Source: Escherichia coli (GTDB lineage: Bacteria; Pseudomonadota; Gammaproteobacteria; Enterobacterales; Enterobacteriaceae). Taken from it: DNA of 64,000 nt. Every line of letters starts with the position of its first letter. The first letter of the stretch is position 1. The stretch is from assembly GCF_044324875.1 (NCBI RefSeq), contig NZ_CP172185.1; one strand, written 5' to 3'. This document shows positions 39,592-43,243 of this stretch, piece by piece. The translations under genes were made by a program, and so were the position numbers. Below the pieces are notes generated by a model, which ran no database searches, was not told the origin of the DNA, and saw only the letters and a list, made by a program, of their open reading frames with translations.

Positions 39592-40623
39592 ATGTCTGCA
39601 TTTACCCCGGCAAGTGAAGTCTTGCTGCGTCACAGTGATGATTTCGAACAAAGCCGTATTCTGTTTGCCGGAGACTTACAGGATGACCTGCCCGCGCGTT
39701 TAGATACCGCGGCCAGCCGTGCTCATACCCAGCAATTCCACCATTGGCAGGTGTTAAGCCGCCAGATGGGGGATAACGCCCGTTTTAGTCTGGTCGCAAC
39801 GGCAGATGACGTCGCAGATTGCGATACGCTGATCTACTACTGGCCGAAGAATAAACCGGAAGCCCAGTTCCAGTTGATGAATTTACTTTCTCTGCTGCCG
39901 GTGGGCACGGATATTTTTGTCGTTGGCGAGAACCGCAGCGGCGTGCGCAGCGCCGAACAGATGCTGGCAGATTATGCGCCGTTGAATAAAGTCGACAGCG
40001 CCCGTCGCTGCGGCCTCTATTTTGGCCGTCTGGAAAAACAGCCGGAATTTGATGCGGATAAATTCTGGGGCGAATATAACGTGGATGGCCTGACGGTCAA
40101 AACGCTGCCGGGCGTGTTTAGCCGCGACGGTCTGGATGTCGGTAGCCAGTTACTGCTCTCGACGTTAACTCCGCACACGAAAGGTAAAGTACTGGATGTC
40201 GGCTGTGGCGCGGGCGTGCTTTCTGTTGCCTTTGCGCGCCATTCACCGAAAATTCGTCTCACTCTGTGCGATGTCTCTGCGCCAGCGGTAGAAGCCAGCC
40301 GCGCAACACTTGCGGCCAACGGTGTTGAAGGTGAAGTCTTTGCCAGTAACGTCTTTTCCGAGGTGAAAGGTCGTTTTGATATGATCATCTCCAACCCGCC
40401 GTTCCACGATGGGATGCAAACCAGCCTCGATGCGGCGCAAACGCTGATTCGCGGCGCGGTGCGTCATCTTAATAGCGGCGGCGAGCTGCGAATTGTAGCG
40501 AACGCCTTCCTGCCTTACCCGGACGTGCTGGATGAGACATTTGGCTTCCACGAAGTGATCGCGCAAACCGGGCGCTTCAAGGTGTATCGCGCCATTATGA
40601 CCCGCCAGGCGAAGAAAGGTTAA
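39592..40623 (+). CDS. rsmC: 16S rRNA (guanine1207-N2)-methyltransferase
   Basis: 343 aa; SAM-binding [10 protein letters not shown] and NPPFH catalytic motif. Confidence 0.93.
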
Positions 40624-40880
<257 letters not shown>

Positions 40881-41001
40881 GTTTCCTGATGGCCATTTTT
40901 CCAGCAATTACACCTCCGGCGATAATTAACTATTGACGAAAAGCTGAAAACCACTAGAATGCGCCTCCGTGGTAGCAATTCTTTTTAAGAATTGATGGTA
41001 T

Positions 41002-41088
41002 GCGAAGGTGGCGGAATTGGTAGACGCGCTAGCTTCAGGTGTTAGTGTCCTTACGGACGTGGGGGTTCAAGTCCCCCCCCTCGCACCA
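41002..41088 (+). tRNA. leuQ: tRNA-Leu (anticodon CAG), copy 1
   Basis: GCGAAGGTGGCGGAATTGGTAGACGCGCTAGCTTCAGGTGTTAGTGTCCTTACGGACGTGGGGGTTCAAGTCCCCCCCCTCGCACCA; cloverleaf with long variable arm. Confidence 0.93.
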
Positions 41089-41116
41089 AAAACCACGTTG
41101 ATATTGCTCGCACTGG

Positions 41117-41203
41117 GCGAAGGTGGCGGAATTGGTAGACGCGCTAGCTTCAGGTGTTAGTGTTCTTACGGACGTGGGGGTTCAAGTCCCCCCCCTCGCA
41201 CCA
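41117..41203 (+). tRNA. leuP: tRNA-Leu (CAG), copy 2, with C-to-T change in variable arm
   Basis: Identical to copy 1 except GTGTTCTTACGG for GTGTCCTTACGG. Confidence 0.9.
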
Positions 41204-41237
41204 AACGAGGCGATATCAAAAAAAGTAAGACGACTGT

Positions 41238-41324
41238 GCGAAGGTGGCGGAATTGGTAGACGCGCTAGCTTCAGGTGTTAGTGTCCTTACGGACGTGGGG
41301 GTTCAAGTTCCCCCCCTCGCACCA
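41238..41324 (+). tRNA. leuV: tRNA-Leu (CAG), copy 3, with C-to-T change in T-stem
   Basis: Identical to copy 1 except TTCAAGTTCCCC for TTCAAGTCCCCC (G-U wobble in T-stem). Confidence 0.9.
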
Positions 41325-41362
41325 ATTATCTTTACTTCCTTTCTTGTTTCTTCCCTGATTTT

Positions 41363-41599
41363 TCATCCCTGATTCAAATTCATTATCATCAGCATGATGC
41401 CAGCAATAAGCGCCAGGCACGATGGCAGCAAAACGTAATGCCGCAACTGTTTGTGATACAGCATCACCGGCGTCAATATTAATCCCATCAGAATGACAAT
41501 CCGCCACTGATCCGGCGATAAATCCGCATACATCAGCCCTGCAATCAGCAATCCCGGCAGCAACACTCCCCAGCCACTGCCCAGCGTACGTTGCAACAT
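41363..41599 (-). CDS. yjjZ: Small membrane protein YjjZ (78 aa)
   Basis: ORF 41363..41710; 78 aa from MLQRTLGSGWGVLLPGLLIAGLMYADLSPDQWRIVILMGLILTPVMLYHKQLRHYVLLPSCLALIAGIMLMIMNLNQG. Confidence 0.7.
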   Translation of the reverse strand: MLQRTLGSGWGVLLPGLLIAGLMYADLSPDQWRIVILMGLILTPVMLYHKQLRHYVLLPSCLALIAGIMLMIMNLNQG

Positions 41600-41616
41600 G
41601 GTTTCATCTCTTTCAT

Positions 41617-41722
41617 TGATAATGATAACTAATATCATATGATAATTTTTATCATTTGCAAGCCAGAGAAATCCCTTGCTATCGGGTAAACCTATCGCTA
41701 GGATTAGCAATCATTATCATTT
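41617..41722. promoter_or_regulatory. Fur-box cluster in the yjjZ-fhuF divergent promoter region
   Basis: tgataatgataactaatatcat, atgataatttttatcatt and gcaatcattatcattt match GATAATGATAATCATTATC. Confidence 0.65.
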
Positions 41723-41739
41723 AGATTACTATCCCGATT

Positions 41740-42528
41740 ATGGCCTATCGTTCCGCACCGCTCTATGAAGATGTTATCTGGCGAACGCATCTCCAGCCGC
41801 AGGATGCTGGGCTTGCACAAGCCATACGGGCGACGATCGCCGAACATCGTGAACATTTGCTCGAGTTTATCCGCCTGGATGAACCCGCTCCGCTTAACGC
41901 CATGACGCTGGCGCAATGGTCATCAACGAATGCGCTAAGTTCTCTACTGGCGGTCTATTCCGATCATATCTATCGCAACCAACCAACGATGATCCGCGAG
42001 AACAAACCGCTGATCTCACTATGGGCGCAATGGTATATCGGCCTGATGGTGCCACCATTAATGTTGGCGCTGCTGACGCAGGAAAAAGCATTAGATGTGT
42101 CGCCGGAACATTTCCACGTTGAGTTTCACGAAACCGGACGCGCCGCCTGTTTCTGGGTCGATGTGTGTGAAGATAAAAACGCAACACTACATTCGCCGCA
42201 GCAGCGAATGGAAACGTTAATCAGTCAGGCGCTGGTTCCGGTAGTGCAGGCATTAGAAGCAACGGGAGAGATCAACGGCAAACTTATCTGGAGCAATACC
42301 GGTTATTTGATCAACTGGTATCTGACTGAGATGAAACAGCTGCTTGGCGAGGCGGCGGTTGAATCGCTGCGCCATGCCCTCTTTTTTGAGAAAATGCTCA
42401 CGAACGGTGAAGATAATCCACTCTGGCGTACCGTGGTACTGCGCGACGGCCTGCTGGTGCGCCGCACTTGCTGCCAGCGTTATCGCTTACCGGATGTGCA
42501 GCAATGTGGCGATTGTACGCTGAAATGA
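41740..42528 (+). CDS. fhuF: Ferric-siderophore reductase FhuF (2Fe-2S, C-terminal Cys cluster)
   Basis: 262 aa; C-terminal CCQRYRLPDVQQCGDC. Confidence 0.93.
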   Translation: MAYRSAPLYEDVIWRTHLQPQDAGLAQAIRATIAEHREHLLEFIRLDEPAPLNAMTLAQWSSTNALSSLLAVYSDHIYRNQPTMIRENKPLISLWAQWYIGLMVPPLMLALLTQEKALDVSPEHFHVEFHETGRAACFWVDVCEDKNATLHSPQQRMETLISQALVPVVQALEATGEINGKLIWSNTGYLINWYLTEMKQLLGEAAVESLRHALFFEKMLTNGEDNPLWRTVVLRDGLLVRRTCCQRYRLPDVQQCGDCTLK

Positions 42529-42565
42529 AAGCACTGCCGGGGAAGTAAACCCGGCATCATGCGGA

Positions 42566-43243
42566 TTAATAGGGATGCAACACATTACTTGCTTCGCAAT
42601 GCCGCATACATAACAGAATATCTGCGGCCTCCAACAACCCTGCATCAGAACTGACGCCCAGTTTCGACATCACATTAAATTTATGTGCACGGATCGTTTT
42701 GATATTGCGTTTAAGCTGCTCGGCAATTTGTGTCATTGAGTAGCCACGCGACATAAAGCGCAATATTTCTCTCTCCGTCGGGCTTAGCGTTCGGCTTTGA
42801 TTAATGTACCACTGATTGTTCAGTCGGTCGGTCGCCTGACGTACACCATTTAATGACAAAAAGAGTTCCTGATGAAAAATCTCCAGCGTTGACGCTTTAC
42901 TTAATACACCGTCCAGCGGTGATGGCGACAATGAACCAATCAGCCGAGCTTCAATATCATCATCCGCAATAACTAAACGCCGGGTACGCGGAAACTTAAT
43001 CGCCAGTTCAGTCAGGCAAGATAATCCCTCTCTGCGCTCACTTCTCATGGCAGAAAAAGAAAAAATGACCGCCGCAAACGAGATCCGCGACATGGCATCC
43101 TGAAATGACTCCTGACTGGTATAGGTATGGAGCTTATAAGGGTTACCCGCAAACTTTCTGAATAAACTCTCAATACCGATACTACTCATGACGCATTTTT
43201 CTATGAGTGCGACATTTCTCTTCTTAATTCGGCTGTGTTCCAT
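42566..43243 (-). CDS. bglJ: LuxR-family transcriptional regulator BglJ
   Basis: 225 aa; C-terminal LuxR HTH ([25 protein letters not shown]); start may be at a downstream Met since the ORF overlaps yjjQ by 43 nt. Confidence 0.85.

Follow-up and report, generated by a model that had tools for sequence, protein, structure and literature searches.

Fur sites lying between two divergently transcribed genes raise the question of whether a single operator serves both promoters or each promoter has an operator of its own, and at the yjjZ-fhuF locus of Escherichia coli this question is confined to a spacer of 140 bp with 32% G+C. A preliminary description of the window (the whole 64-kb stretch of DNA that was analysed) had proposed that three overlapping Fur-box matches in this spacer, taken together as one cluster at 41617-41722, place both genes under iron-dependent control. 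That the spacer holds Fur sites and two promoters, and that both genes depend on Fur, is already recorded in the literature, EcoCyc and RegulonDB. As to the arrangement of the sites, the spacer very probably consists of two back-to-back sigma-70 promoters, each equipped with its own Fur operator. The Fur binding, the transcription starts and the Fur dependence on which this reading draws are experimental results of others, while the excess of matches over chance, their positions and their separate conservation come from the present analysis.

The locus and published evidence for Fur control

The segment at about 41.0-43.9 kb belongs to the E. coli chromosome and carries rsmC, three tRNA-Leu(CAG) genes, yjjZ, fhuF, bglJ and yjjQ; at the yjjZ-fhuF locus the gene order is identical to that of K-12 MG1655. 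The 1.3 kb around the Fur sites find a match in 5,424 of 5,426 complete E. coli genomes, mostly with 95-99% identity and at best with 99.8%, and the annotation of the matching genomes names yjjZ (DUF1435), fhuF (siderophore-iron reductase), bglJ and tRNA-Leu. The start positions put forward in the preliminary description, 41599 on the minus strand for yjjZ and 41740 on the plus strand for fhuF, agree with the sequence, the open reading frame list and the annotation. The three tRNA-Leu genes follow yjjZ immediately on its downstream side, in tandem and on the other strand (41002-41085, 41117-41200 and 41238-41321); they are the counterparts of K-12 leuQ, leuP and leuV, which are tRNA-Leu(CAG) in the K-12 record, and the open reading frames listed over them are spurious, being translated tRNA sequence. 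Between rsmC and these genes lie two Rfam matches to naRNA4, a REP-type nucleoid-associated RNA, scoring above gathering (40669-40751 and 40780-40862). Compared with Rfam under permissive settings, the stretch 40500-43000 gave only the three tRNA-Leu and two naRNA4/REP-type matches, and the spacer itself is without a match, so that no RNA element accounts for its conservation.

Using DNase I footprinting, Chen et al. (2007) found two Fur-protected regions at the fhuF promoter region, one of high and one of low affinity, and the strong cluster, with the K-12 sequence, also binds purified Fur in gel shift experiments (PMC2189734). [quoted passage not shown] These positions were transferred to the window as 41740 + 4603686 − coordinate, and the mapping holds because the two ATG codons are 141 bases apart both in Chen et al. 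and in the window. The mapped footprints (Table 1) leave an unprotected gap of about 30 bp between them, at 41664-41692.

On the side of yjjZ, a sigma-70 promoter with its start at K-12 4,605,777 has been shown to support strong initiation in vitro, and the gene is silent in the wild type and transcribed in a fur deletion strain (PMC10301672). EcoCyc, as cited in the same paper, lists two Fur sites at the yjjZ promoter (PMC10301672). Nine E. coli strains share a core Fur regulon that includes both fhuF and yjjZ (PMC10164565), and in strain CFT073 yjjZ is likewise counted in the direct Fur regulon (PMC7157518). In the Fur titration assay the reporter is the fhuF::lacZ fusion carried by strain H1717, which is iron-regulated and is described as exceptionally sensitive owing to its weak affinity for Fur (PMC3050691). 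Footprints, expression in the fur deletion strain and membership of the core regulon (PMC2189734, PMC10301672, PMC10164565) thus bear out the earlier proposal that iron and Fur control both genes, and the outcome that would have spoken against it, namely an absence of Fur binding and of any response to iron or Fur, is already ruled out by published experiments. The binding and derepression data for this locus refer to K-12 or other published strains.

Fur is not the only regulator reported at fhuF. Zheng et al. are said to have described an OxyR site at this gene in 2001, a review cites repression of the gene by OxyR, and binding of UvrY at the fhuF promoter has been reported from ChIP-exo and EMSA data. 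The OxyR pattern is ATAG-N7-CTAT-N7-ATAG-N7-CTAT; by eye, an OxyR-like arrangement of ATCG-N7-CTAT-N7-ATTA-N7-TTAT can be seen at 41681-41717, overlapping the fhuF -35 and -10, and no claim of an OxyR site is made for it here.

As regards allelic differences, the K-12 fhuF/yjjZ promoter region (PMC2189734, PMC10301672) is the same locus, onto which footprint and start coordinates map directly, and it differs by strain-level changes only. Within the 161 aligned bases of 41590-41750, which include the spacer, there are four such differences, two of them outside the sites. At 41630 the window has T, whereas K-12 and most genera have C, and this lowers the first Fur box from 17/19 to 16/19; Salmonella arizonae and some of the other Escherichia share the T. 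At 41701 the window has G and K-12 has T, giving a fhuF -10 of TAGGAT here and TATGAT in K-12. Of the 5,426 complete E. coli genomes, 3,559 contain the exact 57-mer with TAGGAT and 414 contain its K-12 version, and TAGGAT is the form of the fhuF -10 in almost all other genera. K-12, the strain of the footprints and of the titration assay, therefore carries a minority fhuF -10 that is more consensus-like.

Table 1. Genes, promoters, Fur-box matches and mapped footprints of the yjjZ-fhuF region (positions in the window; a point marks features given without strand)
Feature	Position	Strand	Description
yjjZ	41363..41599	-	78 aa/codons, DUF1435 membrane protein; ATG 41599; Pfam PF07256, E 1e-36; ORF list; RefSeq annotation, including K-12
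fhuF	41740..42528	+	262-aa ferric-siderophore reductase; ATG 41740; Pfam FhuF and FhuF_C; ORF list; annotation
yjjZ sigma-70 promoter	41634..41661	-	-35 TTGCAA 41661-41656, 16-nt spacer, -10 TATGAT 41639-41634; promoter scan
fhuF sigma-70 promoter	41677..41704	+	-35 TTGCTA 41677-41682, 16-nt spacer, -10 TAGGAT 41699-41704; starts 41709 and 41710 (published, mapped)
fhuF1, high-affinity Fur-protected region	41611..41663	.	Published footprint, mapped; contains the two best 19-mer and the two best 7-1-7 matches of the window
fhuF2, low-affinity Fur-protected region	41693..41746	.	Published footprint, mapped; over fhuF -10, start, 5' UTR and start codon
Fur box 1, GATAATGATAACTAATATC	41618..41636	.	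16/19; corresponds to 7-1-7 sites 41617-41631 and 41623-41637 (6-bp offset); over yjjZ start and part of -10
Fur 7-1-7 site, TGATAATTTTTATCA	41640..41654	.	13/14; inside the 19-mer match 41641-41659 (15/19); fills the yjjZ -35/-10 spacer
Weak-site core, 7-1-7 match TAGCAATCATTATCA	41705..41719	.	11/14; within conserved block TAGGATTAGCAATCATTATCATTTAGATT (41699-41727)

Fur-box matches and their relation to the two core promoters

The aerobactin iucA operator is the prototype of the Fur box, and the classical 19-bp box was reportedly read by Baichoo and Helmann, in 2002, as overlapping 7-1-7 inverted repeats. Both descriptions were used here, the whole 64-kb window being scanned with the 19-bp consensus GATAATGATAATCATTATC (on both strands) and with the 15-bp 7-1-7 motif TGATAATNATTATCA, scored over 14 positions; scoring relied on these two scans together with shuffled sequences and on no weight matrix. 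The two best 19-mer matches of the entire window both fall in the spacer, GATAATGATAACTAATATC at 41618-41636 and a second match at 41641-41659, and the remaining matches of the window have 5 mismatches at best. Shuffling the spacer 20,000 times with dinucleotides preserved gave a match with ≤3 mismatches 17 times, and such a match accompanied by a second of ≤4 mismatches once. The best 7-1-7 matches of the window are likewise those at 41640-41654 (13/14) and 41623-41637 (12/14), and matches with 3 mismatches (11/14) are found at 41617-41631 and 41705-41719. The strongest site predicted by Chen et al. (22.3 bits, 4603779) maps to 41647, the exact centre of the best 7-1-7 match. The strong cluster at 41617-41659 accordingly comprises three dimer-sized sites, two of which overlap at an offset of 6 bp. 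Box 1 may be taken as a pair of 7-1-7 units with this offset, a third unit follows 17 bp downstream, and the arrangement does not differ in kind from the classical Fur box.

The site near fhuF is of another quality. It lies at 41700-41724, 45 bp from the strong cluster, and matches the 19-mer at 12/19, the level that the best match in a shuffled spacer typically reaches. Its assignment rests on the 7-1-7 core (11/14), on conservation and on the published footprint, the 19-mer match giving it no support, and a motif match above chance is found for the strong cluster. Thus the matches reported in the preliminary description are real for the strong sites, which stand far above chance, and less surely so for the third, which reaches only 12/19; they are not of equal quality, and the overlap ascribed to them holds for two of the three sites of the strong cluster and not for the third 19-mer match, 45 bp away.

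It might be argued that all these matches are a by-product of AT-rich promoter DNA, in which TATGAT/ATCATA palindromes, UP elements or sites for H-NS, Fis or IHF resemble Fur boxes without being functional. The low G+C content of the spacer and the chance-level 19-mer score of the third site would agree with such an origin, as would the fact that a -10 hexamer can be read in ATCATATGAT on either strand. We consider it hardly credible, given that the strong pair arose in a single one of the 20,000 composition-keeping shuffles, that the other AT-rich 140-bp stretches of the window were none of them better than 6 mismatches to the 19-mer, and that the columns concerned are 94-98% conserved across genera; the published Fur footprints already refute it, and the gel shift and fur-deletion data speak against it too. 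A further Fur-like match to the 7-1-7 motif, with 3 mismatches, occurs at 41374-41388 (TCAAATTCATTATCA), inside the last codons of yjjZ, and probably arises from the codons that specify MIMNL.

The positions of the sites become informative when set against the core promoters. The start of yjjZ maps to 41626, 27 nt upstream of the ATG, and the hexamers found by the promoter scan are correctly placed for that start. The -35 and -10 hexamers of fhuF were placed by reading the sequence only; the cTTGC and TAGGAT blocks to which they belong are conserved across genera, and the -10 lies 5-6 nt from the mapped starts, slightly closer than canonical. The two promoters are arranged back to back, with their starts 83-84 bp and their -35 hexamers 15 bp apart. 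Overlap with the -35, -10 or start of a repressed promoter, as judged from the promoter scan and the mapped published starts, is found for both groups of sites: the strong sites at 41617-41654 cover the yjjZ start, its -10 and the spacer up to the -35, and the -10, start, 5' UTR and ATG of fhuF fall under the weak site together with the low-affinity footprint. The strong cluster, 47-99 bp upstream of the fhuF start, is outside the fhuF core promoter.

The scan for terminators and promoters also returned a promoter-like TTGATA-16-TATGAT on the plus strand at 41616-41643 (10/12), which is made by the ATCATATGAT palindrome of the yjjZ -10. It was rejected as a second fhuF promoter, since its TATGAT forms a palindrome with the yjjZ -10, the T that precedes GATAAT varies among genera, and the published starts of fhuF are at 41709/41710.

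Separate inheritance of the two site groups in the Enterobacteriaceae

The comparison covered 52 fhuF loci from species-representative genomes, 48 of which include the start of yjjZ. In ten of them (five Escherichia, three Leclercia and two Silvania) the distance between yjjZ and fhuF is 140-166 bp, in agreement with the window. The other 38 come from further genera, among them Citrobacter, Salmonella, Klebsiella, Enterobacter, Kosakonia and Trabulsiella, and there 1396-1444 bp separate fhuF from the yjjZ ATG upstream of it. The gap in these 38 loci is occupied by a gene on the fhuF strand for a membrane GGDEF protein of 348-354 aa (Pfam PF00990). A first pass limited to 700 bp upstream of fhuF had suggested that yjjZ is missing from most genera, and this was rejected when whole loci showed the gene about 1.4 kb away. 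The GGDEF gene, a diguanylate-cyclase gene found for example at 348-1394 of locus L040 and 316-1380 of locus L009, plus 36 more loci, is transcribed divergently from yjjZ where present. Escherichia, Leclercia and Silvania lack it, and the 140-bp spacer of E. coli holds no remnant of it.

The two groups of Fur sites follow different genes in this comparison. A Fur box with ≤4 mismatches is found 17-20 bp from the yjjZ ATG in all 48 loci (≤3 in 45), whether fhuF is near or far; the block GATAATGATAACCAATATCATATGATA…TTTcTCATTTGtcAG is nearly invariant, the columns of Fur box 1 are 98% conserved (50 distinct sequences from many genera), and homology ends right after the yjjZ -35. At the other end, the block cTTGC…TAGGATTgGCAATCATTATCATTTAGATT is kept by every fhuF, and the fhuF-proximal block at 41699-41728 is 94% conserved (53 distinct sequences), compared with 59-69% in its flanks; overall, the flanks of the two conserved blocks are 45-71% conserved in about 50 species. 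In the separated loci, the 300 bp upstream of fhuF contain no 19-mer match with ≤5 mismatches further than 46 bp from the fhuF ATG. An alignment in which the two sides of the Citrobacter and Salmonella loci were set against the window places the module junction at about 41664/41665. Conservation in orthologous promoters, as expected of Fur operators, is therefore present, and the strong operator is inherited with yjjZ and the weak operator with fhuF. The promoter as such, and regulators such as OxyR and UvrY, may likewise contribute to the conservation seen in the fhuF-proximal block.

In Escherichia the two operators are adjacent because the GGDEF gene is absent. Since this gene is widespread, its loss in Escherichia and, separately, in Leclercia/Silvania would be the more economical reading of the distribution. 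In the genera that have the gene, the strong Fur operator may affect it too, and the plus-strand match at 41616-41643 could there correspond to its divergent promoter.

These comparisons bear directly on whether the two divergent genes are controlled together from one shared group of Fur sites, as has been proposed for the compact fepA-fes region. All sites lie within 110 bp between the start codons, both yjjZ and fhuF respond to Fur, and protection was seen by Chen et al. to extend along the DNA at higher Fur concentration, a behaviour termed 'secondary footprinting' (PMC2189734). We nevertheless regard a shared cluster as very unlikely, since what is found is not one contiguous cluster over both promoters and inherited as a unit: the two footprints are about 30 bp apart, separated by the gap at 41664-41692, and differ in affinity, each of them lies over a different core promoter, and in 38 of 48 species the site groups stand 1.4 kb apart, each with its own gene. 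The interval 41617-41722, first described as one cluster, is accordingly better divided into two.

A two-operator model and its implications

In the model of two back-to-back promoters with an operator each, Fe(II)-Fur at the strong operator (41617-41659, with its three dimer-sized sites over the -35/-10 spacer, -10 and start of yjjZ) would block RNA polymerase and so keep yjjZ silent when iron is sufficient. The weak operator, at about 41699-41728 in the footprint 41693-41746, would repress fhuF from its position over the -10 and start, and its low affinity would allow fhuF to be derepressed early and in a graded manner as active Fur, or iron, falls; early derepression of this kind is in keeping with the choice of fhuF::lacZ as the reporter for Fur titration. 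Each operator would thus act mainly on its own promoter, by occlusion, and the weak site alone would set the sensitivity of fhuF. Both protected regions were counted by Chen et al. as parts of 'the fhuF promoter' (PMC2189734). From its position and its co-inheritance with yjjZ, the 'high-affinity fhuF site' of the literature is here read instead as the yjjZ operator; fhuF itself then has only a weak site, and this would explain simply why the fhuF::lacZ fusion performs so well in the titration assay.

The strong cluster is close to the fhuF start, and it is possible that Fur spreads, or binds cooperatively, onto the weak site. In its strongest form, this would mean that the fusion of the two modules in Escherichia created a new coupling, the strong yjjZ operator nucleating Fur and helping to load the weak fhuF site, so that repression of fhuF would here require both operators. 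The modules do abut with essentially no spare DNA, the -35 hexamers being separated by 15 bp, and the extended protection at higher Fur concentration in Chen et al. (PMC2189734) would be in line with such a coupling; the weak site and the fhuF promoter are, however, equally conserved in genera without a strong site nearby, and the E. coli fhuF promoter, too, is characterised as one of weak affinity (PMC3050691), which makes the coupling unlikely. Equally speculative, and in our opinion unlikely, is the extension of this idea in which loss of the GGDEF gene led to a lineage-specific cooperative loading of Fur and to an iron threshold of fhuF unlike that of Salmonella or Klebsiella, with the TATGAT of K-12 shifting the titration reporter further.

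Two separate operators also set this locus beside better known iron-regulated pairs. The fepA-fes, fepB-entC and fepD-entS regions of the enterobactin cluster, footprinted examples of which are given in PMC2189734, are likewise back-to-back iron-regulated sigma-70 promoters with Fur boxes over their core elements. Compared with these pairs, the yjjZ and fhuF operators differ clearly in affinity, their modules are evolutionarily separable and would have been joined by loss of an intervening gene, and YjjZ (DUF1435) and FhuF have no known common pathway.

The significance of the two-operator arrangement amounts to little beyond the correct annotation of the yjjZ-fhuF spacer. Because the fhuF -10 of K-12 is the minority form, results obtained with K-12 fhuF reporters may slightly overstate the strength of the fhuF promoter relative to most E. 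coli.
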